The notes under the pieces are model-generated. The model did not search any database. It was not told the DNA's origin and saw nothing but the letters and a program-made list of their open reading frames with translations. A DNA stretch of 64,000 bases from Escherichia coli. GTDB lineage: Bacteria > Pseudomonadota > Gammaproteobacteria > Enterobacterales > Enterobacteriaceae. The translations under genes and the position numbers were made by a program. The DNA lies in NCBI RefSeq assembly GCF_003018255.1, contig NZ_CP027440.1. One strand, 5' to 3'. Shown here in pieces: positions 42,081-64,000 of this stretch. Each line of letters begins with the position of its first letter. The stretch's first letter is position 1.

Positions 42081-42905
42081 TTACTCCAGCGGCATTACCA
42101 GCGGATCGGGATACTGGTATTCAAATCCCAGTTCATTACAAATCCGACTGCCATCAATAATCTTACCTTTGCCGCTGTCCAGACTATTTCTGAACTGCGG
42201 AGGTTCCAGCCCCAGTAAACGGGCCATCTGCGGATAGAAAACATTACGCGCAGGGTGAGCTGGCGCACATATATTATAGATGTGTCCGCCTTTAGGTGCC
42301 TGTAACAACAGAGTGATAGCACCAATAACATCTTCTAAATGGACTAAATTAACACCATGTTCACCATCAGGGGCGGTTTTTCCGGCAAAGAAGCGTCCGG
42401 GATGACGTCCCGGTCCGACCAGCCCCGCAAGACGCAGAATATCGACCGAAGTACCGGGTAAATTGTGCAGCCAGTCTTCGAGTTCTTCTAATACTCGTCC
42501 ACTGTTGGTCACCGGATTACGCGGGGTGGTTTCTTTCACCGTGCCTTGCGCGTCGCCATAGACAGATGTTGAGCTGGTAAAAATAATTCGGGGAATACGA
42601 TGGGCCAGCGCGCTATCCACTAACTCTTGTACCGCTTGTAAATAGAACTCATCGCCGGGGCCGCTACGACGTGCCGGAAGCGTAATGACCAGCGCGTCGG
42701 CATCCATCAGGGCATCCAGATCGTCAGAATCGCAAACTAACTCAGGCTCCATGCGAAGCAGATAGCTATCAATGCCACTCATTCGGGCCGCTTCGACACC
42801 ATCTTGTGTGGTTTTACTCCCGGTGACTTGCCAGCCTCGCGCTGAAAGTGACATCGCCAGCGGCATGCCTAACCACCCTAACCCGACAATTGCGACCTTT
42901 TTCAT
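42081..42905 (-). CDS. yeeZ: NAD-dependent epimerase/dehydratase-family protein
   Basis: 274 aa with Rossmann motif VAIVGLGWLG. Confidence 0.88.
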   Translation of the reverse strand: MKKVAIVGLGWLGMPLAMSLSARGWQVTGSKTTQDGVEAARMSGIDSYLLRMEPELVCDSDDLDALMDADALVITLPARRSGPGDEFYLQAVQELVDSALAHRIPRIIFTSSTSVYGDAQGTVKETTPRNPVTNSGRVLEELEDWLHNLPGTSVDILRLAGLVGPGRHPGRFFAGKTAPDGEHGVNLVHLEDVIGAITLLLQAPKGGHIYNICAPAHPARNVFYPQMARLLGLEPPQFRNSLDSGKGKIIDGSRICNELGFEYQYPDPLVMPLE

Positions 42906-43009
42906 CCGTTATCTCCTGATACACCTTAGATCTATAAGGCTACGCTAGCGTATCAAAACTGACAATTCATTCTATGAATGAAATCGAAACGGTTAGCAAA
43001 TATACCATT

Positions 43010-43038
43010 GCCTGATGCGCTCCGCTTATCAGCCCTAC
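43010..43038. repeat. REP (repetitive extragenic palindromic) element
   Basis: gcctgatgcgctccgcttatcagccctac, typical REP consensus. Confidence 0.7.
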
Positions 43039-43072
43039 AAAAACATCAATATATTGAATTTAGGCAACATTT

Positions 43073-43109
43073 GTAGACCTGATAAGGCATTCACGCCGCA
43101 TCCGGCAGG
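43073..43109. repeat. REP element in inverted orientation (with the previous one forms a BIME-like pair)
   Basis: gtagacctgataaggcattcacgccgcatccggcagg. Confidence 0.7.
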
Positions 43110-43328
43110 AACAAAGCCCACTTTAGTTACAGAACACAATGTTCTTGAGGATTTAATGACATATTTTCACGATTACTTTTTTAACCTAGTCACTCTTAGC
43201 CCCTCCTTACCCCGCTCATTCATTAAACAAATCCATCGCCATAAAATATATAAAAAAGCCCTTGCTTTCTAACGTGAAAGTGGTTTAGGTTAAAAGACAT
43301 CAGTTGAATAAACATTCACAGAGACTTT

Positions 43329-43379
43329 TATGACACGCGTTCAATTTAAACACCACCATCATCACCATCATCCTGACTA
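43329..43379 (+). CDS. hisL: his operon leader peptide
   Basis: ATG ACA CGC GTT CAA TTT AAA followed by seven consecutive His codons, then CCT GAC TAG. Confidence 0.95.
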
Positions 43380-43443
43380 GTCTTTCAGGCGATGTGTGCT
43401 GGAAGACATTCAGATCTTCCAGTGGTGCATGAACGCATGAGAA

Positions 43444-43480
43444 AGCCCCCGGAAGATCACCTTCCGGGGGCTTTTTTATT
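43444..43480 (+). terminator. his attenuator terminator
   Basis: GC-rich hairpin agcccccggaag-atcac-cttccgggggct followed by a T-run, between hisL and hisG. Confidence 0.9.
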
Positions 43481-51777: not shown

Positions 51778-52944
51778 TTAGTCACTGCCAAAGAGATCGC
51801 GGGTGTAGACCTTATCTGCCACATCCTTAAGCTCTTCTGCCATACGGTTGGAAATAATGACGTCGGCTTGTTGTTTGAAGGTGGCGAGATCACGTTCCAG
51901 ACGAGAGTTGAAGAATGAGTCTTCTTTCATCACCGGCTCGTAGATGATCACCTCAACGCCTTTAGCCTTAATACGTTTCATAATCCCCTGAATGGAAGAC
52001 GCGCGGAAGTTATCTGAACCGCTCTTCATAATCAGGCGATAAATACCCACCACTTGCGGTTTGCGTGACAAAATGGCATCGGCAATAAAATCTTTACGCG
52101 TGCGGTTTGCATCGACAATTGCCGAGATCAGGTTATTCGGCACAGACTGGTAGTTCGCCAGTAACTGCTTGGTATCTTTCGGTAGACAATAACCACCATA
52201 GCCAAACGACGGATTGTTGTAATGGTTGCCAATACGCGGATCGAGACAAACGCCTTCGATAATCTGGCGAGTATTCAGCCCTAAACTTTCTGCATAGCTA
52301 TCCAGTTCATTAAAGTATGCTACGCGCATCGCCAGATAGGTATTAGCGAAAAGTTTAATCGCTTCTGCTTCAGTGGAGTCGGTAAACAGGGTTGGGATAT
52401 TTTGCTTAATCGCGCCTTCCTGTAATAACGCCGCAAAACGTTCTGCGCGTTCCGAACGCTCACCGATGACAATACGTGACGGATGAAGGTTATCGTAAAG
52501 GGCTTTACCTTCGCGGAGGAATTCGGGGGAGAAAATAAGGTTATCGATACCCAGACGTTCTTTAATTGATTTGGTGAAACCTACCGGAATTGTAGATTTA
52601 ATCACCATTACCGCGTTGGGATTAATTTCTGTCACATCGCGAATGACCGCTTCCACGCTTGAGGTATTAAAATAATTTGTTTTTGGGTCATAATCGGTAG
52701 GCGTGGCAATAATAACGTAATCGGCATTTTTATACGCGTCATACTTATCTGTCGTAGCGCGGAAATTGAGATCTTTAGTCGCCAGATACTCTTCAATCTC
52801 CTTATCAACAATCGGTGACTGCTTCTTGTTAAGCATGTCCACTTTGGCCTGAACGATATCCAGTGCAACCACTTCGTGGTTTTGCGCAATCAGAATACCA
52901 TTTGAAAGACCAACATAACCTGTTCCTGAAATTGTTATTTTCAT
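51778..52944 (-). CDS. ugd: UDP-glucose 6-dehydrogenase
   Basis: 388 aa from [16 protein letters not shown]. Confidence 0.92.
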
Positions 52945-53142
52945 TAGCTCTGACTTCTTCCGGTTAAACATTTAGAGTGGTCATTAATCCACCACCACAG
53001 CTTCATCTACTGCGGGATTTTTAACGCTGATGTAGATGAACTGTCAAGGCAGCGATCCTGCTGTGCGGCTCTGTATTATATCGCTTTTTTAACCATAAAT
53101 TATAAAAAAAGGCCATAACCTGCCGCTTTGTATAATAAAAAA

Positions 53143-53163
53143 GCCCGGAGGGTTTCTCCGGGC
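53143..53163 (-). terminator. Rho-independent terminator of gnd
   Basis: Hairpin gcccggag-ggtttc-tccgggc with a T-run on the minus strand. Confidence 0.7.
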
Positions 53164-53192
53164 CTTGCATTGATTAATTGATTTAAATCAGA

Positions 53193-54599
53193 TTAATCCA
53201 GCCATTCGGTATGGAACACACCTTCTTTATCAATGCGCTTATAAGTATGCGCACCGAAATAGTCACGCTGTGCCTGGATCAGATTCGCAGGCAAAACAGC
53301 GGCGCGGTAGCTGTCATAATAGGCAACCGCAGCGGCGAATGTCGGAACCGGGATACCGTTCTGCACTGCATAAGCAACGACATCACGCAGCGCCTGCTGA
53401 TAGTCATCGGCGATTTGCTTAAAGTACGGAGCCAGCAGCAGGTTAGCGATCTGCGGATTTTCGGCGTATGCATCGGTGATTTTCTGCAGGAACTGCGCAC
53501 GGATGATGCAGCCAGCACGGAAAATCTTCGCGATTTCGCCGTAGTTCAGATCCCAGTTGTATTCTTCAGACGCAGCACGCAACTGAGAGAAGCCCTGAGC
53601 GTAAGAAACGATTTTGCCCAGATAAAGCGCACGACGAACTTTTTCGATAAACTCAGCCTTATCGCCTGCTGGCTGTGCTTGCGGGCCAGAGAGAACTTTA
53701 GATGCGGCAACACGCTGATCTTTCAGAGAAGAGATATAACGTGCAAACACAGACTCGGTAATCAGCGACAGCGGTTCGCCGAGATCAAGCGCACTCTGGC
53801 TGGTCCATTTGCCCGTACCTTTGTTTGCTGCTTCATCCAGAATCACATCAACCAGGTAGTTACCGTCTTCATCTTTTTTGGTGAAGATATCTTTGGTGAT
53901 GTCGATCAGGTAGCTGCTCAGTTCACCGTTATTCCACTCGGTAAACGTCTGCGCCAGTTCTTCGTTGGAAAGATTCAGGCCACCTTTAAGCAGAGAATAG
54001 GCTTCAGCAATCAGCTGCATATCGCCGTATTCAATACCGTTGTGAACCATCTTCACATAGTGACCTGCACCATCGGCACCGATATAGGTAACGCATGGCT
54101 CACCGTCTTCAGCTACTGCGGCGATTTTGGTCAGGATCGGCGCAACCAGTTCATAGGCTTCTTTCTGCCCACCAGGCATAATGGAAGGACCTTTCAGCGC
54201 GCCTTCTTCACCACCGGAGACACCGGTACCAATGAAGTTAAAGCCTTCGGCAGAAAGCTCACGGTTACGACGAATGGTGTCCTGGAAGAAGGTATTACCA
54301 CCATCAATGATGATGTCACCTTTATCGAGGTATGGCTTGAGGGAATCAATAGCAGCATCCGTGCCTGCACCTGCTTTCACCATTAACAGGATGCGACGAG
54401 GCGTTTCCAGAGATTCAACAAACTCTTTCACCGTATAGTAAGGAACCAGTTTCTTGCCTGGATTTTCGGCAATCACTTCTTCGGTCTTTTCACGGGAACG
54501 GTTGAAAATAGAGACGGTATAACCACGGCTTTCGATATTGAGCGCAAGGTTGCGCCCCATCACTGCCATACCGACGACACCGATCTGTTGCTTTGACAT
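53193..54599 (-). CDS. gnd: 6-phosphogluconate dehydrogenase (decarboxylating)
   Basis: 468 aa ([27 protein letters not shown]...). Confidence 0.95.
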
Positions 54600-54706
54600 T
54601 GTTTACTCCTGTCAGGTGGAAAACTAAATACTTTTAGAGTTAGCGTTATATTAACTGATATCATTTGATGATAGTAGATAATATTATGATAAATACTGAC
54701 TCAGTA

Positions 54707-55723
54707 TCACTCAGAATATCCATTCGGATTTTTATTTTGCCATCTCCAAGCATCAGTAATCATATCCTCAAGTGTACGCTTTGCTTCCCAATGAAGCTCT
54801 TTAATAGCTAAATCTGGTTTTGACCAACATTCAGCGATATCTCCAAGCCTTCGCTCAGAAATAACATAAGGTATTTTTATTCCGGTTATTTTTTGAAAGG
54901 CATCAATAATCTCTTTTACTGAATATCCTTTACCTGTGCCTAGGTTATAATAACGTAACCCACCGTATATATTTTGTTTTTTTAGCGCTGCAATATGACC
55001 TTCCGCTAAGTCCATAACATGTATGTAATCTCTAACTCCGGTGCCATCAACCGTAGGATAATCCCCCCCATATATGGTCAACTTCTCAAGTTTCCCAACA
55101 GCAACCTGTGTTAAATAGGGAAAAAGGTTGCTTGGTACACCATTAGGATCCTCACCAATTAAACCAGAATAATGTGCGCCTACAGGATTAAAATATCTCA
55201 AGCAAGTTGCATTAAATTTAAATTCATAATTGGTTATATCTTCAAGCATTCTTTCAACAATATATTTTGTCGTCCCATATGGATTTGTTGTTCCTCCTGT
55301 ACTGCAATTTTCGTGCACCGGAATAGCTGTAGGATTGCCATATACTGTTGCGGATGAACTAAAAATAAAATTGTAAATTTTATTTTTTAACATCGAGTCA
55401 ATTAAATGCAAAGTTCCAATAACATTATTCTCATAATACTGAATGGGTTTTTTAATTGATTCCGAAACAGATTTTAGCGCAGCAAAATGAATAACAGCCT
55501 CGATATCATTATTTGCAAACACAGAATCAATCAAGTCAATGTTGCGTATATCTCCTTCATATATAATTATTTTCTTAGAAGTCAAATACTCCACTCTTTT
55601 TAAAGCAATCTTTGAAGAGTTACTAAAATTATCAATAACAATAACATCATAGTTATGATTTAAAAGTTGCAATACTGTATGTGAACCAATATATCCTGCC
55701 CCACCAGTCACGAGAACAGCCAT
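54707..55723 (-). CDS. UDP-hexose 4-epimerase (GalE/Gne family) of the O-antigen cluster
   Basis: 338-aa SDR protein with VTGGAGYIGSH and YxxxK; low-GC; next to gnd. Could be a UDP-GlcNAc/GalNAc epimerase. Confidence 0.8.
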   Translation of the reverse strand: MAVLVTGGAGYIGSHTVLQLLNHNYDVIVIDNFSNSSKIALKRVEYLTSKKIIIYEGDIRNIDLIDSVFANNDIEAVIHFAALKSVSESIKKPIQYYENNVIGTLHLIDSMLKNKIYNFIFSSSATVYGNPTAIPVHENCSTGGTTNPYGTTKYIVERMLEDITNYEFKFNATCLRYFNPVGAHYSGLIGEDPNGVPSNLFPYLTQVAVGKLEKLTIYGGDYPTVDGTGVRDYIHVMDLAEGHIAALKKQNIYGGLRYYNLGTGKGYSVKEIIDAFQKITGIKIPYVISERRLGDIAECWSKPDLAIKELHWEAKRTLEDMITDAWRWQNKNPNGYSE

Positions 55724-55756
55724 ACCCTCTCCTTTAAAAACATTTTTTATAAGAAA

Positions 55757-56734
55757 CTATCTGTTTTTTACTTGATACAAGAAATGATAAACTGGAAAGA
55801 ATTTTTTAATCAACAACAAGCGAAACGCATAATACATACCAAAAGCCTGTTCGCAATTCATTTTCTGCTCTATGTTTTTCGGCAAAACTATTTTATTTTT
55901 TTTACATAAAAGGAATATATAAATCAAAAAATCATTGTATCTTTTCTTAAGATAATACTTGACCAATCTATTCTTTGTTGTTTGTATAATACATCTATAG
56001 GTTTTTAATACTTCCAGATAACCAATTATATTGCGAGAGCTAATTTTACTTGTCATTATTGAGTTTTCCCTTACCCTTCGGTAAAAATAAATCTCATCGG
56101 TACAATAACACAACTTAGAATCTAAAATAATCCTAGGTAAGTACTCTTCATCCTCATGAACTATATTTTTAAAAAATGAATTTCGCATTAATAATTCAGT
56201 TCTAAATACATTAATGCAAACAGATGAAAAGTAAGAATTGGTTGAAAATAATCTTTCTAAAAAAACATCACCAGACTTACAAATTTGAAATTTAGTTCGT
56301 TTATATGAAGGAATTTTACCTGCCAAATTAGAAGGGAGCCCTAATATTGATCCTGAAAATGCTATAATGTCTAACTCTTTATAATTAGTCAATATTTCAT
56401 TAATATCCCTTATAAACATTGGACTCAAAGCATCATCAGAGTCAAAAAAATAGACGTATGGTGTGCTAACTTTTGTCAGACCATAATTCCTAGCACTGCT
56501 TAAACCACCATTTTCTTTAGAAAATATCTTATAATTATCCTTACCCTCTATTCTTTTTTTAAGGAGAGGTATCGAATCATCACTAGAACCATCATCCACG
56601 ATGATAACTGAATGTGGTTGCATAGACTGATTTATAATAGAATCTATAGCCTCAACAATATAATCTTGGACATTGTACACAGGCATAACAATTGATATTA
56701 ATTTGGAAATCTCATTTTCTTTTTGGCAAAGCAT
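55757..56734 (-). CDS. Glycosyltransferase family 2
   Basis: 325 aa with N-terminal GT-A motif ISIVMPVYN...VIIVDDGSSD; low GC. Confidence 0.8.
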   Translation of the reverse strand: MLCQKENEISKLISIVMPVYNVQDYIVEAIDSIINQSMQPHSVIIVDDGSSDDSIPLLKKRIEGKDNYKIFSKENGGLSSARNYGLTKVSTPYVYFFDSDDALSPMFIRDINEILTNYKELDIIAFSGSILGLPSNLAGKIPSYKRTKFQICKSGDVFLERLFSTNSYFSSVCINVFRTELLMRNSFFKNIVHEDEEYLPRIILDSKLCYCTDEIYFYRRVRENSIMTSKISSRNIIGYLEVLKTYRCIIQTTKNRLVKYYLKKRYNDFLIYIFLLCKKNKIVLPKNIEQKMNCEQAFGMYYAFRLLLIKKFFPVYHFLYQVKNR

Positions 56735-58145
56735 TGTTTAATAATCCCACAATGGTATTTTTATCAATAATAAACATAAGACAAACATAACTCCCTGCAC
56801 CTATAACGATATAATAAATCAAAGATAATAATTCCATATTATTAGATTGAGTTATAAAATTATTTTTAGCAATCAGTATCAAAATTAGCATGCAAACACT
56901 ACAAAACAAAGGTTTACATGTTATACATAAAATGTTTTTTATGTTACCTTGGAGCAATCTCATGACGTAATAAAAGCAGATGTAAAATATTAATACATTC
57001 GCACAAAGATATAACTGGCAGAATATAACGATATTGAAGCATGCCCCAATAACAAATGACATAACTTGAATTATTGCACTCACACAACCAATCCTTGCCA
57101 GCAACTTAACGTTACCTAAAGATAAAAAAACTACTCCTGTAGTGCTCGTGAGTGCTTGGATAATCCCAACAGGTGCCAACCATTTTAAAAGAAGAGCAGC
57201 ATTATCCCAATTTTTACCAAACAGAAAAAAAACTAACTCGTTACTTAACGAAGCGAGCCCAATCATGGCAGGAATTGACAAAACTGCAATGAACTTTAGC
57301 GAGTCTAAATATATTCTTTTTTTTGTTATAATATCTTTTGAATGACTTAGCTTAGGCAATAAAGCTCTATTAAATATATAAGTTATATTTTGAACTGGAA
57401 ATAACATAAGTCTATATGCTAATGCATAATTACCTAAAACATACTGCCCAAAAATTTTTCCAACTATAATATTATCAGCGTTACGTGAGAAATAATTCAC
57501 CATATTAAATGACATTACATTAACACAATAGCCAAATATTAATTTTATATATTTCATCCGCCAAGAAAATTTATATTTTCTTCTATTTTTAAGGCTCAAT
57601 AAAAAAACAACAATAACTGCATACAAAAGGGCCTGTAGAGACACAGCATAAAGTCCAAAGCCCATGGCAATTACTATAAAAACAACAATGATTGAAATCG
57701 ATAATGATATCAACTCTATGAGAGCAGTAATATTGAACTGTTGGTTTCGTTCTAATAAAGCAAAATTAAAAGCAATAAAACTTTGTAAAGGAAATGAAAA
57801 AGAGATGATCAATATTAATAGAAACAACCTTGTGTCATTGTAAAAAAGGGATATTGGATAAGCTAATAATGTCATTACGATAAAAATAACGAGACCGCTT
57901 ATAAAGTTTAATGTGTATGTGGATTTAATAAAATTTTCACTTATTCTTCTCCGTTGAATTAATATTGATGACGTCCCCATATCTCTAAAGAGCATGGCAA
58001 ATGCAGCCACTACGCTTACAATGGAAATCAAACCATAGTCATAAGGCGTTAAATAACGAGCCAGTACAAAGATCAAAACTAATTGGCTCAGAGCTCTTGC
58101 AATTTGAGATAAAGCGACCCATTTTACTCCTGTTATCAAAAGCAT
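56712..58145 (-). CDS. wzx: O-antigen flippase Wzx (MOP superfamily)
   Basis: 477-aa polytopic protein with about 12 predicted TM segments, typical Wzx size and hydropathy; low GC. Confidence 0.75.
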   Translation of the reverse strand: MLLITGVKWVALSQIARALSQLVLIFVLARYLTPYDYGLISIVSVVAAFAMLFRDMGTSSILIQRRRISENFIKSTYTLNFISGLVIFIVMTLLAYPISLFYNDTRLFLLILIISFSFPLQSFIAFNFALLERNQQFNITALIELISLSISIIVVFIVIAMGFGLYAVSLQALLYAVIVVFLLSLKNRRKYKFSWRMKYIKLIFGYCVNVMSFNMVNYFSRNADNIIVGKIFGQYVLGNYALAYRLMLFPVQNITYIFNRALLPKLSHSKDIITKKRIYLDSLKFIAVLSIPAMIGLASLSNELVFFLFGKNWDNAALLLKWLAPVGIIQALTSTTGVVFLSLGNVKLLARIGCVSAIIQVMSFVIGACFNIVIFCQLYLCANVLIFYICFYYVMRLLQGNIKNILCITCKPLFCSVCMLILILIAKNNFITQSNNMELLSLIYYIVIGAGSYVCLMFIIDKNTIVGLLNNALPKRK

Positions 58146-58152
58146 TTTATTA

Positions 58153-59049
58153 TTATCTCACTCTTTTTTTAAAATGGTTTTCATAAACTTTTTGCTTCAA
58201 ATATATAATGCCAGGGAACGCTCTTTTGAGTAGCAACTTAGTTGCAAATAATGTCCAGTATTGTTTTTTTGCTATAAAAGAAAATATAATTTTAATTTTT
58301 AAACATCTTAACATCATTAACCTAAACAGGTTATAATTCTTTGTATCATTGTACATTATATTCTTATATTTAAAATAATACTTCCGATATGCCACATAAT
58401 CTTTAATATTCTTGGTTATTCTAACACCTTCATGAGAAATATCCATATAGTAAGTATTAGCGTTTAACCTCCTGGCACTCCCATAAACTTGAATAAGTTT
58501 AGTCCAAACATCTTGATCTTGTAACCGTTTAAAATCAATAGAAAATCCTCCAACTGATAACAAACGCTCTCGCTCAACTAAAATCTGGTTACCAGCTTCA
58601 TTTTCCTTGAGTATACTTTGTAAATCAATGATACATTCTCTTTGAAATCGTGCATGATTATTTGTTCCAGTCACTATTATATAGTTATCGCAGATAAAGG
58701 AAAATTCCTTGTTATAATGATTAACCAGAATCTGTAACCTATCTTCTTTGAAATAATCATCATCATCCAACCCTGTAATGAAGAAACCTTTTGCATGCTT
58801 TAATCCTCTATTTCTAGAAAAATTAGCCCCCATATTTCTTGGGTTTTTCTTATATATAAAATTCTTAATATTTGGTGTTGCTACTTCTTGCAATTCTTTT
58901 ACAATCAAGTCAACTTCATAACTAGAGTTATCATCGACTACGATTAATTCTATTTTTGAATAAGTTTGATTAAATACTGATAATATTGCTCTGCGCAACA
59001 GCAAAGGGCGATTATAAGATGTTATAAGAACGCTTACTAATTTTTCCAT
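58153..59049 (-). CDS. Glycosyltransferase family 2
   Basis: GT-A motif VSVLITSYNRP...IVVDDNS; probable start MEKLVSV, with the listed ORF extended. Confidence 0.8.
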   Translation of the reverse strand: MEKLVSVLITSYNRPLLLRRAILSVFNQTYSKIELIVVDDNSSYEVDLIVKELQEVATPNIKNFIYKKNPRNMGANFSRNRGLKHAKGFFITGLDDDDYFKEDRLQILVNHYNKEFSFICDNYIIVTGTNNHARFQRECIIDLQSILKENEAGNQILVERERLLSVGGFSIDFKRLQDQDVWTKLIQVYGSARRLNANTYYMDISHEGVRITKNIKDYVAYRKYYFKYKNIMYNDTKNYNLFRLMMLRCLKIKIIFSFIAKKQYWTLFATKLLLKRAFPGIIYLKQKVYENHFKKRVR

Positions 59050-60407
59050 TTCTTTTTCAAAACCATCAACAAAGTAATTATAACCAAAGAATAGATCCAC
59101 AGCGGGAATATGCCATTAAGCCCTGCTCTTGGTAAAAAGCCTATCCTATATGCTGTTATAACTGATAATGCAGTAATATAAAGCCCCTTAGAGTTACCTC
59201 TATTTTCTGCTAAACTTAAAAACACCCCAAATAAGCAAGCAACAATAATCATAGCTCCAACATTTTTATTACACAGCAAAACTATATCATTGACAAAACT
59301 CCAGCCAACACCATAACCACTTTTGAATAACGCTGGATTTAATAAATCGGATAGATACGCAGAAGAGCTATTGTATAATATAGTGTGTTCTGCAAACATG
59401 TTATATATAGCATTAGCTCCAGGGATAAAGTTTTGAGCTAATAAATAGCCAGGAAAATTATCTATATATTTAGTGAAATAGATGACATGTAATGTCACTC
59501 CTTGTTGAAATAAGAATGAGAAGTAATGTTCGAACAAATTTATATTTGAATTACTATAATCCGCTCTAAATAATAACAATGTTTGGGAGAAAACTATAGC
59601 AATACCACCTATTATAACTAACCTAAGGAGGGGTATTTTCTTAATGTACTTATTTCTATACCAAAGATAAAATAAAAAGAATGATAATAATGGACCTCGC
59701 TGACCGATAAAAGCCAACATTAAAGAGTTCATCAATAAAACGCACAGATAAAAATTAGTGTTCTTTTTATTGTCAGTTGATATTGATATAGACAAAAAAA
59801 CAGTCGCTATCGTAATTCCTAAAGAATAAAGATTTGGTATAATACTTCCTTTCTCCAATAATTCTAAATTTTTTGTATAAAATGAAAGATATCCGCCTGA
59901 ATTTACTGCCTCTAAACCTGAATATATATATGGAAAAACAAGGCAACCGACCAAAAATAAAACTGGTCCATTAGGCAACCTCAGATTATATGTTACTACA
60001 TTGACGTTTTTATTCTTATTTTCAATACACTGAGTAAAAAAATACCCTAAAAGAATTGAATATATTATTATCCCAATCGTCAATAACAAATTCACAGAAT
60101 CAAGTGAACTTATAGTCGTGGTATAAAAAAGCGTTACTGTATAGTAATCCATTTCAGAGTATAATAAATATGAAAATATGCGCCCAAAAATAAATATACT
60201 TATTGTCATTATAAAAAGCGATATTATGCTTAGTACCCCTGATAAAAGTGCCGTTTGTAAATATGCAAATGCTATAAATAAAAAACAACTTATTGCTAAT
60301 GTGTAATAGTCAACACTAACAAAACCGGCCTCATTTAATAAATAACCAACAATAAAAAAGGCAATAATAATAGAATCGACGAATACTATTATCGCAGAAT
60401 TATTCAT
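59037..60407 (-). CDS. wzy: O-antigen polymerase Wzy
   Basis: 456-aa very hydrophobic, AT-rich polytopic protein with about 10-12 TM segments, typical of Wzy. Confidence 0.7.
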   Translation of the reverse strand: MNNSAIIVFVDSIIIAFFIVGYLLNEAGFVSVDYYTLAISCFLFIAFAYLQTALLSGVLSIISLFIMTISIFIFGRIFSYLLYSEMDYYTVTLFYTTTISSLDSVNLLLTIGIIIYSILLGYFFTQCIENKNKNVNVVTYNLRLPNGPVLFLVGCLVFPYIYSGLEAVNSGGYLSFYTKNLELLEKGSIIPNLYSLGITIATVFLSISISTDNKKNTNFYLCVLLMNSLMLAFIGQRGPLLSFFLFYLWYRNKYIKKIPLLRLVIIGGIAIVFSQTLLLFRADYSNSNINLFEHYFSFLFQQGVTLHVIYFTKYIDNFPGYLLAQNFIPGANAIYNMFAEHTILYNSSSAYLSDLLNPALFKSGYGVGWSFVNDIVLLCNKNVGAMIIVACLFGVFLSLAENRGNSKGLYITALSVITAYRIGFLPRAGLNGIFPLWIYSLVIITLLMVLKKKWKN

Positions 60408-61177
60408 TTTATTTTTTCCATAAAAAATATCATAAGCCGATAAACAAAGTAGTATAAAGACATTACCATTATTAATAGACTAAGCTCAGAAAGGCTATTT
60501 AAGTATACACATAATGAGGTAAAAAAAATAAAAAGATAATAGCGGCATCTTAACAATGAATGATTTTTAAATAACTCTCGCTGAAAATAATACAACTCAA
60601 ATCTTTTCTCACCACACCTCTCGATCACATTTATAATTGAGAAACATATTGTAAATATTATTATGCTACGCAAATCCCCTGTACAAACAACTAATGGTGA
60701 AGAGTACCTGATTGTAACTAATATAAAATGCAATAAAAGATTTAATCGATTTCTTATTGAATTATATATCGCATACATCGGGATAAGTAACCATGGATAC
60801 CAGAGAAACTCTCCACCTAACTTGTAAACACAAAAAGTGACAACAACAGATACAAATAATCTAAAGATATATATTGTCTTTTTATTACCCTCATAATAGC
60901 GTATTTCTTTTTCAGAAAGCCGCAGAGTAGGTTTTATTTCTTTTTTTATTGTTTCTGCATCATTGTAGATATATCCTAATTCATACAGATTATATGTTAG
61001 TACTATAGTTAATCCCAGTTGCCCCCATAACTCAACACTCTCTTTAGTGCTTTCAAATAAAAAAAACAGCAACAAAACTGGAAATAGATAAATTAGGCAC
61101 CAAGAAATTGTTTTAGCACGCGTTTTAGTTCTTGTTTCAATAAAATATAAAAATGGGATATAAAATTTGCACCACAT
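60404..61177 (-). CDS. Polytopic membrane protein of unknown function (O-antigen cluster)
   Basis: 257-aa hydrophobic protein; start overlaps the stop of the upstream gene by 1 nt (translationally coupled). A weak NDxxTxxxE segment resembles but does not match the UbiA-family NDxxDxxxD motif. Confidence 0.5.
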   Translation of the reverse strand: MWCKFYIPFLYFIETRTKTRAKTISWCLIYLFPVLLLFFLFESTKESVELWGQLGLTIVLTYNLYELGYIYNDAETIKKEIKPTLRLSEKEIRYYEGNKKTIYIFRLFVSVVVTFCVYKLGGEFLWYPWLLIPMYAIYNSIRNRLNLLLHFILVTIRYSSPLVVCTGDLRSIIIFTICFSIINVIERCGEKRFELYYFQRELFKNHSLLRCRYYLFIFFTSLCVYLNSLSELSLLIMVMSLYYFVYRLMIFFMEKIK

Positions 61178-61178
61178 A

Positions 61179-61784
61179 CTACACCTTAATTATTTTTTCA
61201 ATGCCATTTCTTACCCAATAAACAACTGCTTTTTTATTATTAGCCACAGCTATGGCCACATCGCATTTTTTCATCATATTAAGATCACCAAAATTATCAC
61301 TTATCATTGTGAATGATTTATTAACATCACTAATTATATTTATAATATTTTCCTTATTATTTAATAAATCCACTTTTATCTTCCCAGTTGCAACACTATC
61401 AAGATAATCCAAGCAAGTAGCATAAAAACCATTATAGTTAAGTTCTGAATAAAACTCTTCCGCGATGAAATCAAGCGTTGCTGAAACTATATATATCTCA
61501 TCAAAATCTTCCTTTTCAATTAAATTTAATACCGCGTCATTATAATGGCATTCTTTCACAAATATTTTAGCTTGTTTTCGCAGTATAGTTTTGGGAACAC
61601 CTTTAAGTTTTGCTATTGCCCAGCGCCTTAAAAGATCAAATTTCGTGAATTTATAAATTAAATATAAAGAAATAAAAATAAGAGATTTCCTTCTGACATA
61701 ATCAAATCGTTCAAGAAAAGCAAAAGTCGTATTTTCTTTAACCAAAGATCCACATAGATCCAATAATAGAATTTTTTTCTTCAT
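61179..61784 (-). CDS. HAD-superfamily hydrolase-like protein (O-antigen cluster)
   Basis: 201 aa; N-terminal LLLDLCGSL resembles HAD motif I (DxDG[TS]L) but has Cys at the Asp+2 position. Confidence 0.5.
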   Translation of the reverse strand: MKKKILLLDLCGSLVKENTTFAFLERFDYVRRKSLIFISLYLIYKFTKFDLLRRWAIAKLKGVPKTILRKQAKIFVKECHYNDAVLNLIEKEDFDEIYIVSATLDFIAEEFYSELNYNGFYATCLDYLDSVATGKIKVDLLNNKENIINIISDVNKSFTMISDNFGDLNMMKKCDVAIAVANNKKAVVYWVRNGIEKIIKV

Positions 61785-62599
61785 TTGCGTAAGAACTGAT
61801 TATAGATAGATGATAATAATTGTTTAGGTAATAGCCTGACTAATGAACGACCTAAAAATATTAATTTTGCACTTACCCCTTTATTAATGCCTAAATCAAC
61901 AATAAGTTTATAAAGTTCATATTCACTTTTGATATATTTTAATCCTTTTCTTCTATTGATCATTTCTTCGCCGGCACGTGCTAAAACTAATACATCATTA
62001 ACATTATCCATAGCGAAACCTGCGGCATAACAACGAAGCCACAAGTTATAGTCTTCCATAAGATAATGGTGGTTATAACCACCAATCTCAATAATTTTTT
62101 GTTTTCTAAACATTACAGTCATGTGATTAAAAGGATTTCGTTTTGCTATTGTTTTACTAATATTATCATAACCACATGGTACTTTTTTTAATTTACGTAT
62201 ATTGTTTTTTTCTGTAAACTCATCAACTGCCCCGCCAATTATTACTAATTCCGGATTACGAATAAACATCTTTATTTGTTTTTCGAATCGCTCAGGTAGA
62301 CAAATGTCATCAGTATCCATTCGTGCGACCAAATCATTCGAACATGCCTGTAGGCCAGCATTTAATGCCTTACCTAATCCAACATTCTCATTGAGTTCAA
62401 CTATTTTTAAAGGCAATTCTCTATCCCATTTTCTAACTACTCTCCATAATCCATTACTGATCGGACCGTCAATAACTGCAACTACTTCATCGATCATTGT
62501 TTTTTGTATCGCAAGACTTTTAAATGCCTCATCAAGATAAATTTCGTTTTCTTTAAAATATATAGATAATAAAACTGATATTTTTTCTATCTTTTGCAC
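61781..62599 (-). CDS. Glycosyltransferase family 2 (first gene of the O-antigen operon)
   Basis: 272 aa; GT-A-like N-terminus ISVLLSIYF...; the only in-frame start is a GTG at 62597-62599 that lies inside the ops element; contains a DTDD motif. Confidence 0.7.
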   Translation of the reverse strand: MQKIEKISVLLSIYFKENEIYLDEAFKSLAIQKTMIDEVVAVIDGPISNGLWRVVRKWDRELPLKIVELNENVGLGKALNAGLQACSNDLVARMDTDDICLPERFEKQIKMFIRNPELVIIGGAVDEFTEKNNIRKLKKVPCGYDNISKTIAKRNPFNHMTVMFRKQKIIEIGGYNHHYLMEDYNLWLRCYAAGFAMDNVNDVLVLARAGEEMINRRKGLKYIKSEYELYKLIVDLGINKGVSAKLIFLGRSLVRLLPKQLLSSIYNQFLRK

Positions 62600-62635
62600 G
62601 CTACCGCCCTTGGCTTAACAGCTACCAACACACTC
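62597..62635 (-). promoter_or_regulatory. JUMPstart element with ops (RfaH recruitment) site
   Basis: Minus-strand GGTAGCTGTTAAGCCAAGGGCGGTAGCGTG; exact 12-bp ops GGCGGTAGCGTG at 62597-62608. Confidence 0.85.
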
Positions 62636-62759
62636 AAAAACCAATGCCACATTATTTAAATACTTGTTAATATTTAAAAAACTAAGACGATAATGAGAAA
62701 ATGCTTCATAATTTTCATACTACCGCCTATTTCCGCTATTAAACTAACGCAAATCTTAC

Positions 62760-63653
62760 TTATTTTAGCAAAGTATCTTCAATAGCTTTACGGAACTTCG
62801 CCCCTTCTTTCAGGTTGCGTAATCCATACTTCACAAACGCCTGCATATAGCCCATTTTTTTACCACAGTCGTAGCTGTCACCAGTCATCAGCATGGCATC
62901 AACGGACTGTTTTTTCGCCAGTTCGGCAATAGCATCAGTCAGCTGAATACGCCCCCATGCACCAGGTTGAGTGCGTTCAAGTTCCGGCCAAATATCGGCA
63001 GAAAGCACATAGCGACCAACGGCCATGATGTCTGAGTCCAGCGTCTGCGGCTGATCCGGTTTTTCGATAAATTCGACGATGCGGCTGACTTTACCTTCGC
63101 GATCCAGTGGTTCTTTGGTCTGGATGACGGAGTATTCAGAGAGGTCACCCGGCATACGTTTTGCCAGCACCTGACTGCGGCCCGTTTCGTTGAAGCGCGC
63201 AATCATGGCAGCAAGGTTGTAGCGCAGCGGGTCGGCGCTGGCGTCGTCGATCACTACGTCTGGCAGTACCACGACAAATGGGTTGTCACCAATGGCAGGT
63301 CGCGCACATAAAATGGAGTGGCCTAAACCTAAAGGTTCACCCTGACGCACGTTCATAATGGTCACGCCCGGCGGACAGATAGATTGTACTTCCGCCAACA
63401 GTTGACGCTTCACGCGCTGCTCAAGGAGAGATTCTAATTCATAAGAGGTGTCGAAGTGGTTTTCGACCGCGTTCTTGGACGCGTGAGTTACCAGGAGGAT
63501 TTCTTTGATCCCTGCAGCCACAATCTCGTCAACAATGTACTGAATCATTGGCTTGTCGACGATCGGTAGCATCTCTTTGGGAATCGCCTTAGTGGCAGGC
63601 AACATATGCATCCCAAGACCTGCTACCGGTATAACTGCTTTTAAATTCGTCAT
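62760..63653 (-). CDS. galF: UTP--glucose-1-phosphate uridylyltransferase-like regulatory subunit
   Basis: 297 aa ([30 protein letters not shown]...). Confidence 0.92.
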
Positions 63654-63898
63654 TATTTTCCTACCTCTAAGTGGCTGATAGTGCGTAAATTATTGCCATA
63701 GGTTAGCCAAACGTTATGGCTATATACCAAAGCTTAGTTCCGCATAACTTTGATTAAACCTTGCGATAACACTACACACCATCAGCATCTGGGTTACTCG
63801 GATTACTCGGAAATCCACATACTGATAATTTAATCAGTACCTCTTTCCGAATAATCGTAGTCCAACCTGGTCCTTTTTTCTCTGACTCGTCTGCATTA

Positions 63899-64000
63899 CT
63901 CAGAAACAAACGTTATGTCGTCTTTTTTGGCATGGACGAATTCATACTGCAGAGTTCGATCCAGACCTTGCGACAGCGTGTACGGTGCCACAAAACCTGA
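63899..64000 (-). CDS. Partial CDS (3' end only), possibly the last colanic-acid cluster gene
   Basis: Open minus-strand frame running off the window edge and ending ...VHAKKDDITFVSE-stop at 63899; the wcaM assignment is by position only. Confidence 0.35.

Follow-up and report, generated by a model that had tools for sequence, protein, structure and literature searches.

The intergenic slot between yeeZ and hisL in this Escherichia coli strain very probably carries one of two alleles of a chromosomal site, and the one that it carries would be the older. The window, that is, the whole stretch of 64,000 nucleotides that was analyzed, lacks the yefM-yoeB toxin–antitoxin (TA) genes that occupy this position in K-12, and a pair of inverted REP units, assigned to the BIME class on sequence grounds, is found there. 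According to this reading, the flanks common to both alleles bear the promoters of the neighboring genes, the REP pair was at the site first, and a yefM-yoeB cassette replaced it later. The yeeZ-hisL site is a common dimorphism of the species, and the BIME allele is an ordinary one and not an unusual one.

The yeeZ-hisL Spacer and Its Borders

The window belongs to E. coli proper, since its yeeZ and hisG are 99.0% and 97.9% identical to those of K-12 at the nucleotide level. The left neighbor of the slot is a gene for an SDR-family oxidoreductase on the minus strand (42081–42905, an ORF of 274 aa), which is named yeeZ in the matching RefSeq genomes. The right neighbor, on the plus strand, encodes the leader peptide hisL (43330–43380; product MTRVQFKHHHHHHHPD) and is likewise named in matching genomes; additionally, the Rfam family RF00514 (His_leader) matches at 43356–43479 with 131.6 bits. 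These gene borders define a spacer of 424 bp (42906–43329). The first-pass annotation had identified the slot correctly, and only its end coordinate (43328, for a length of 423 bp) stopped a base too early, a trivial difference. In RefSeq genomes that share this arrangement, no feature is annotated between yeeZ and hisL.

Three parts can be distinguished in the spacer when it is compared with K-12. The left part (42906–42982) is common to both alleles and contains the blocks TAAGGCTACG and CTGACAATTCAT, which are kept in Salmonella, Citrobacter, Enterobacter, and Kluyvera. In the reading adopted here, this conserved block looks like the yeeZ promoter, with the candidate hexamers TTGTCA (42960–42965) and TAGCCT (42937–42942) on the minus strand, separated by 17 nt; a consensus promoter scan did not flag it. 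A palindrome, ATTCAT-TCT-ATGAAT, is also present in this flank at 42965–42979. The middle part (42983–43187; 205 bp, 39% G+C) is specific to the allele and corresponds by junction mapping to positions 1578–2225 of the K-12 TOP10 locus (L001). The right part (43188–43329), read on the plus strand, is again common to both alleles, and from 43188 on, through hisL, the identity to K-12 is 98.1%. Within it, the stretch from 43188 to 43245 is specific to the genus Escherichia, and Salmonella and other genera align only from about 43246.

The plus-strand hexamers TTGCTT (43262–43267) and TAGGTT (43286–43291) are taken here to be those of the known his promoter hisp1, in line with their conservation across genera. 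These hexamers were not flagged by the consensus promoter scan. Two 9-of-12 promoter matches inside the BIME were no more than is found in shuffled sequences and were set aside as chance. As a whole, the spacer would form a divergent control region in which each of the shared flanks holds one promoter, for yeeZ on one side and for the his operon on the other, with the BIME-1 element lying between them. A perfect 6-bp inverted repeat, AGAACA-CAA-TGTTCT (43131–43145), also lies on the right of the BIME, within the part of the spacer that only Escherichia has; it is kept in three of four orthologues and has one change in E. albertii. No known binding protein could be assigned to this repeat.

An ORF of 85 aa on the plus strand (43015–43272) starts within the z1 REP and has no Pfam match. 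It had been described as looking spurious from the outset, and the comparison with orthologous alleles leads to the same judgment. In the four alleles tested, the same ATG opens only 31, 56, 13, and 31 aa, the shortening being due to indels and stop codons, and an ORF truncated in all four is best regarded as spurious. The remark that it was the only ORF is right for lengths of at least 60 aa; it is not right in general, since three ORFs of 30–34 aa are also located in the spacer. A translatomics report of a translated REP-containing ORF in EHEC was considered and found to concern yahG-yahI, not yeeZ-hisL.

The REP Pair as a BIME-1 Element

Two inverted REP elements had been placed at 43010–43038 and 43073–43109, and these coordinates are correct. 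On the plus strand, the first is a z1-type REP in inverted orientation (iREP; GCCTGATGCGCTCCGCTTATCAGCCCTAC), which ends in CTAC (43035–43038) and aligns with the z1 unit of the BIME located between torZ and cmoB. The second is a y-type REP (GTAGACCTGATAAGGCATTCACGCCGCATCCGGCAGG), which starts with GTAG (43073–43076) and agrees with the torZ-cmoB copy at 34 of 37 positions. The two units are separated by an L (long) linker of 34 nt (43039–43072), which is partly conserved in the torZ-cmoB copy; the core CAATA-ATTGAA-TTAG is common to both. The consensus for IHF binding is WATCAANNNNTTR, and the linker contains an IHF-like site, cATCAAtataTTG (43044–43056), that follows it at 12 of 13 positions. 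The foot of the z1 stem is degenerate; it reads CAGCCCTAC in the window and CAGGTCGAC in E. albertii.

The arms of the inverted repeat lie at 43025–43041 and 43070–43086 and, farther out, at 43009–43019 and 43097–43107. The 110-nt stretch with the REP pair folds at z = −3.2 relative to shuffled sequences. The alignment with the torZ-cmoB BIME, linker included, reaches a column identity of 83%, and a distant search found from 29 to more than 40 related places per chromosome-sized record. The likeness to the torZ-cmoB copy, the many related places, and the folding score together argue for a member of a repeat family and not for a chance palindrome. In 733 genomes, the best match to the 205-bp segment has an identity of 80–90%; the matches examined in this band are located elsewhere than the yeeZ-hisL slot, with two in the torZ-cmoB spacer. 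Within the 64 kb of the window, a blastn-short search with the arms of the element itself gave no second full REP. It was also observed that an IS621 is inserted in the torZ-cmoB spacer with the paralogous BIME-1 in E. coli MS6192 (L079, 401–1381).

REP units are imperfect palindromes with GTAG, or CTAC on the complement, at the foot (PMC3333891). A BIME-1 is defined as a z1 and a y unit in inverse orientation, present in a single copy, with a long conserved L linker that often contains an IHF site (PMC3333891). In the window, one z1 and one y unit stand in inverse orientation as a single copy, and they belong to a multi-copy family. As in BIME-1 (RIB/RIP) elements, CTAC and GTAG face the long linker, and the IHF site is near the consensus. 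Judged by its sequence, the element is one BIME-1. Its location differs from that of a typical member. BIME-1 or RIB elements are placed at the 3′ ends of transcription units by the title of a work of Boccard and Prentki from 1993, cited in PMC2817692, whereas the element in the window lies between the divergent genes yeeZ (minus strand) and hisL (plus strand) and upstream of both promoters.

Absence of yefM-yoeB and the Nature of the Junctions

In K-12, this slot was said to carry yefM-yoeB, and the annotation of TOP10, a K-12 derivative, agrees: the gene order is yeeZ, yoeB, yefM, hisL. The gaps at the slot in TOP10 are 82 bp and 282 bp long, as in the table in PMC5120126. The further statement that the slot of the window encodes no YefM-like or YoeB-like peptide was upheld by both tblastn and Pfam. 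When K-12 YefM and YoeB were searched against the 64-kb window by tblastn with a word size of 2 and no filtering, the best E value was 0.15; inside the spacer, the best matches covered 7–15 residues at E values of at least 0.69, and the longest covered 43 residues at an E value of 3.5. The spacer has four ORFs of 20 aa or more, and none of them matched a TA family in a Pfam scan that recognized the K-12 controls as PhdYeFM_antitox (6e-28) and YoeB_toxin (3e-43). The arrangement by which a YefM-YoeB type II system is recognized, an ORF with PF02604 followed by an ORF with PF06769, does not occur in the spacer. The statement of absence covers the 64-kb window.

The homology to K-12 is 100% from within yeeZ to 42982 and resumes at 43188. 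Between these shared flanks, the window has 205 bp and K-12 has 648 bp at the equal position, so the junction is a replacement and not a simple insertion or deletion. The K-12 segment begins 5 nt past the yoeB stop codon and ends 140 bp upstream of the yefM start; it is a minimal cassette that consists of the promoter/operator, yefM, and yoeB. Thus, the slot and its flanks are the same in both (100% on the left and 98% on the right), but the genes, the promoter, and the operator are wholly missing in the window, where no remnant was detectable. No transposase, target duplication, or informative microhomology was seen at the junctions. In K-12 TOP10, a perfect 11-nt inverted repeat, GCTAAGAGGAC-A-GTCCTCTTAGC, extends across the right junction (L001, 2215–2237), with the right arm in the shared flank and the left arm specific to the cassette. 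This repeat was considered as a recombination signature and rejected, as E. whittamii retains it at just 8 of 11 positions and no mechanism can be derived from it.

Two Alleles in E. coli

The junction was compared across complete E. coli genomes, with presence counted at a coverage of at least 80% of the 205-bp segment or the 648-bp cassette, and two alleles were found. The BIME segment is present in 1,196 of the 5,426 genomes (22%), many O157:H7 among them. The yefM-yoeB cassette is present in 4,212 (78%); it is always chromosomal, and its identity ranges from 95.4 to 100%. Together, both allele classes account for all but 18 genomes. The version of the 205-bp segment that is found in the window occurs at a level of at least 99% in only one complete genome, DETEC-S792. 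Some of the genomes outside the two classes have IS insertions; in strain CUPF12, for example, which has the TA allele, an IS421 is located in the yefM-hisL spacer (L077, 2833–3945).

Other Species and the Order of Events

Species-representative genomes were scanned with a hisL pattern, which gave 74 loci; E. fergusonii was not among them. In Salmonella arizonae and diarizonae, Citrobacter, Enterobacter, Kluyvera, and Trabulsiella, the spacer is 161–221 bp long and contains neither element, and only the promoter-proximal blocks align. In E. albertii, a record titled E. coli E69, Escherichia sp. MOD1-EC7003, and Escherichia sp. E1V33, the spacer is 424–426 bp long and colinear end to end with the window, BIME included. 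In E. whittamii, it is 866 bp long and carries yefM-yoeB at the K-12 junctions. The E69 record (L020) is only 94.5% identical to the window in yeeZ and 91.9% in hisD; it is distant in the manner of the cryptic Escherichia clades and probably falls outside E. coli sensu stricto.

In the four BIME-carrying lineages outside E. coli, the identity to the window is 87–96% for the 205-bp segment and 92–94.5% for yeeZ. A divergence of the segment that equals or exceeds that of yeeZ indicates that the BIME was inherited vertically in Escherichia and did not spread recently. The TA allele of K-12 keeps the 58 bp (43188–43245) that are specific to Escherichia and contiguous with the BIME allele, from which it follows that the cassette would have entered an allele already with the insert. 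For this reason, we infer that the REP pair is older at this site than yefM-yoeB, an order of events based on parsimony and on five Escherichia genomes other than E. coli. The first-pass annotation had described yefM-yoeB as absent, with a REP pair in its place. Both the absence and the REP pair stand, but the history that this wording implies does not, because the REP allele appears to be the ancestral one in the genus.

The YefM and YoeB proteins are identical in E. whittamii and K-12. Their genes differ by 9 synonymous changes at about 112 sites, in comparison with Ks values of 0.29 for yeeZ and 0.22 for hisG. A synonymous divergence lower than that of the flanks suggests that the cassette moved between lineages after the split between K-12 and E. 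whittamii. Nevertheless, in the non-coding stretch upstream of the cassette genes, the two differ at 11 of 140 positions (7.9%), as much as in the flanks, so the signal of a younger cassette, which comes from only 9 synonymous changes, is not strong. The same 7.9% would fit two ancient alleles kept as a balanced trans-species polymorphism that predates the split of the Escherichia species, neither of them derived within E. coli. Such a polymorphism would also agree with the occurrence of the TA allele in E. coli and E. whittamii and of the BIME allele in E. coli and four other lineages, and with the differences within E. coli, which reach 4.6% for the cassette and about 5% for the BIME segment. 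It is, however, unlikely: between K-12 and E. whittamii, the synonymous divergence of the TA genes is about one third of that of the flanking genes, and the TA allele, which holds Escherichia-specific sequence contiguous with the BIME allele, would have arisen from a BIME-type allele anyway. Recombination is frequent in the his–O-antigen region, and either allele may have passed between species by introgression.

Relatives of the cassette with 83–86% nucleotide identity are located on plasmids of 130–170 kb in Salmonella, Citrobacter, and E. marmotae, which fits the plasmid origin that can be proposed for the cassette. The 76–140 bp of DNA upstream of yefM that are specific to K-12 are not covered by these plasmid homologues, and this stretch was considered as a degraded y REP, with which it has TTTGTAGA in common. 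This candidate was rejected; in local alignments with the BIME segment, 137 and 325 of 500 shuffles scored as high. That an ancestor lost yefM-yoeB and that the scar then received a REP pair by insertion or copying, as through a REP-associated transposase, is highly improbable: REP and BIME sequences move in the course of evolution and vary from strain to strain (PMC3333891; PMC2817692), and the flanks of the window are 98–100% identical to K-12, but the same 205 bp with the same junctions are found in E. albertii and three other non-coli lineages with a divergence that scales with species distance, tblastn and Pfam gave no TA remnant, the DNA upstream of yefM in K-12 is no more homologous to the BIME than shuffles are, and a possible homologous return to the old allele would be an allele swap and not a deletion followed by REP insertion.

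The history in which the REP pair came first and was later replaced can be outlined in three steps. The enterobacterial relatives would represent the starting point, a short spacer of about 160–220 bp. In the ancestor of Escherichia, about 255 bp including the BIME-1 (roughly 42991–43245) would have been added to it. Finally, 205 bp of this insert, with the whole BIME, would have been replaced by the minimal, plasmid-like yefM-yoeB cassette of 648 bp in a lineage whose allele is now found in about 78% of E. coli and also in E. whittamii. The conserved flanks could then have let the cassette spread by homologous recombination. The strain of the window would either never have received the cassette or have recombined back to the old allele.

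Possible Function of the BIME

No other part of the insert is as well conserved as the linker, whose identity across Escherichia species is 94–100%. It has 4 differences in 136 compared positions versus 22 in 264 for the REP arms, although these counts are low and come from comparisons that depend on one another. To judge by other BIME-1 elements, the linker should bind IHF (PMC2817692; PMC3333891), and any action of the BIME would most likely be passive, that of a repeat that binds IHF and bends the DNA. It is quite improbable that the BIME is not neutral but acts between the divergent promoters of yeeZ and his as an architectural element or an insulator of supercoiling, with alleles that set his and yeeZ expression differently and a polymorphism that is kept for this reason. 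The TA cassette of plasmid origin could possibly also have been captured at the REP pair, as its landing site.

The Wider Window

The surroundings of the site were also compared with complete genomes. Positions 1–25000, which match JNE120442, contain mtfA, four tRNA-Asn genes, the series shiA-amn-yeeN-yeeO-cbl-nac-ldtA-cobTSU, a cobalamin riboswitch, pocR-pduF, and, from about 19600, the operon of the propanediol-utilization (pdu) microcompartment. The CP4-44/flu prophage of K-12 was not seen there. A coverage of 80% or more of this part is reached in only 360 of the 5,426 complete E. coli genomes. Positions 52000–64000 contain ugd-gnd-galE, an O-antigen cluster with wzx and wzy of the O185 family, and galF; they are covered by only 6 complete genomes, at 97.8–98.1% identity. 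Over each of the stretches 1–25000, 30000–54000, and 52000–64000, the identity to any complete E. coli genome is at most 98.8%. The strain is either a rare lineage or, in the recombination-prone his/O-antigen region, a mosaic.

Meaning of the Dimorphism

In E. coli, the type II TA systems of the chromosome are known to be accessory, to have been acquired horizontally, and to be integrated in the intergenic regions between core genes (PMC7167474; PMC5120126). In the statements of these papers that cite Fiedoruk 2015 and Ramisetty and Santhosh 2016, no type II TA system is conserved across MG1655, W, EDL933, and UTI89 (PMC7167474; PMC5120126). For yefM-yoeB, a conserved context has been described in K-12, HS, CFT073, and NRG857c (PMC7232551). 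BIMEs, for their part, are a recognized source of intergenic polymorphism, to judge by a title cited in PMC2817692. The variation at the yeeZ-hisL site is of this already known kind, and the detail added here is its polarity, with the REP pair first.

A similar site was reportedly described by Mine et al. in 2009, who are said to have found the ccdO157 TA cassette between folA and apaH in some E. coli and a short intergenic sequence there in K-12. In both cases, some strains have a minimal TA cassette at one fixed intergenic position flanked by core genes, and non-carriers have a different short sequence. The two cases differ in the TA family and in the site. In addition, K-12 is the carrier at yeeZ-hisL, and the empty allele holds a BIME.

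The practical value of the finding is small, and it opens no new question. It offers a worked example of a minimal, plasmid-like TA cassette that would have replaced a BIME between core genes. When yefM-yoeB is deleted, or when strains with and without it are compared, the divergent control region of his and yeeZ is altered as well. K-12 should not be regarded as the default state at this site, as about one in five complete E. coli genomes, O157:H7 included, is naturally without yefM-yoeB here.
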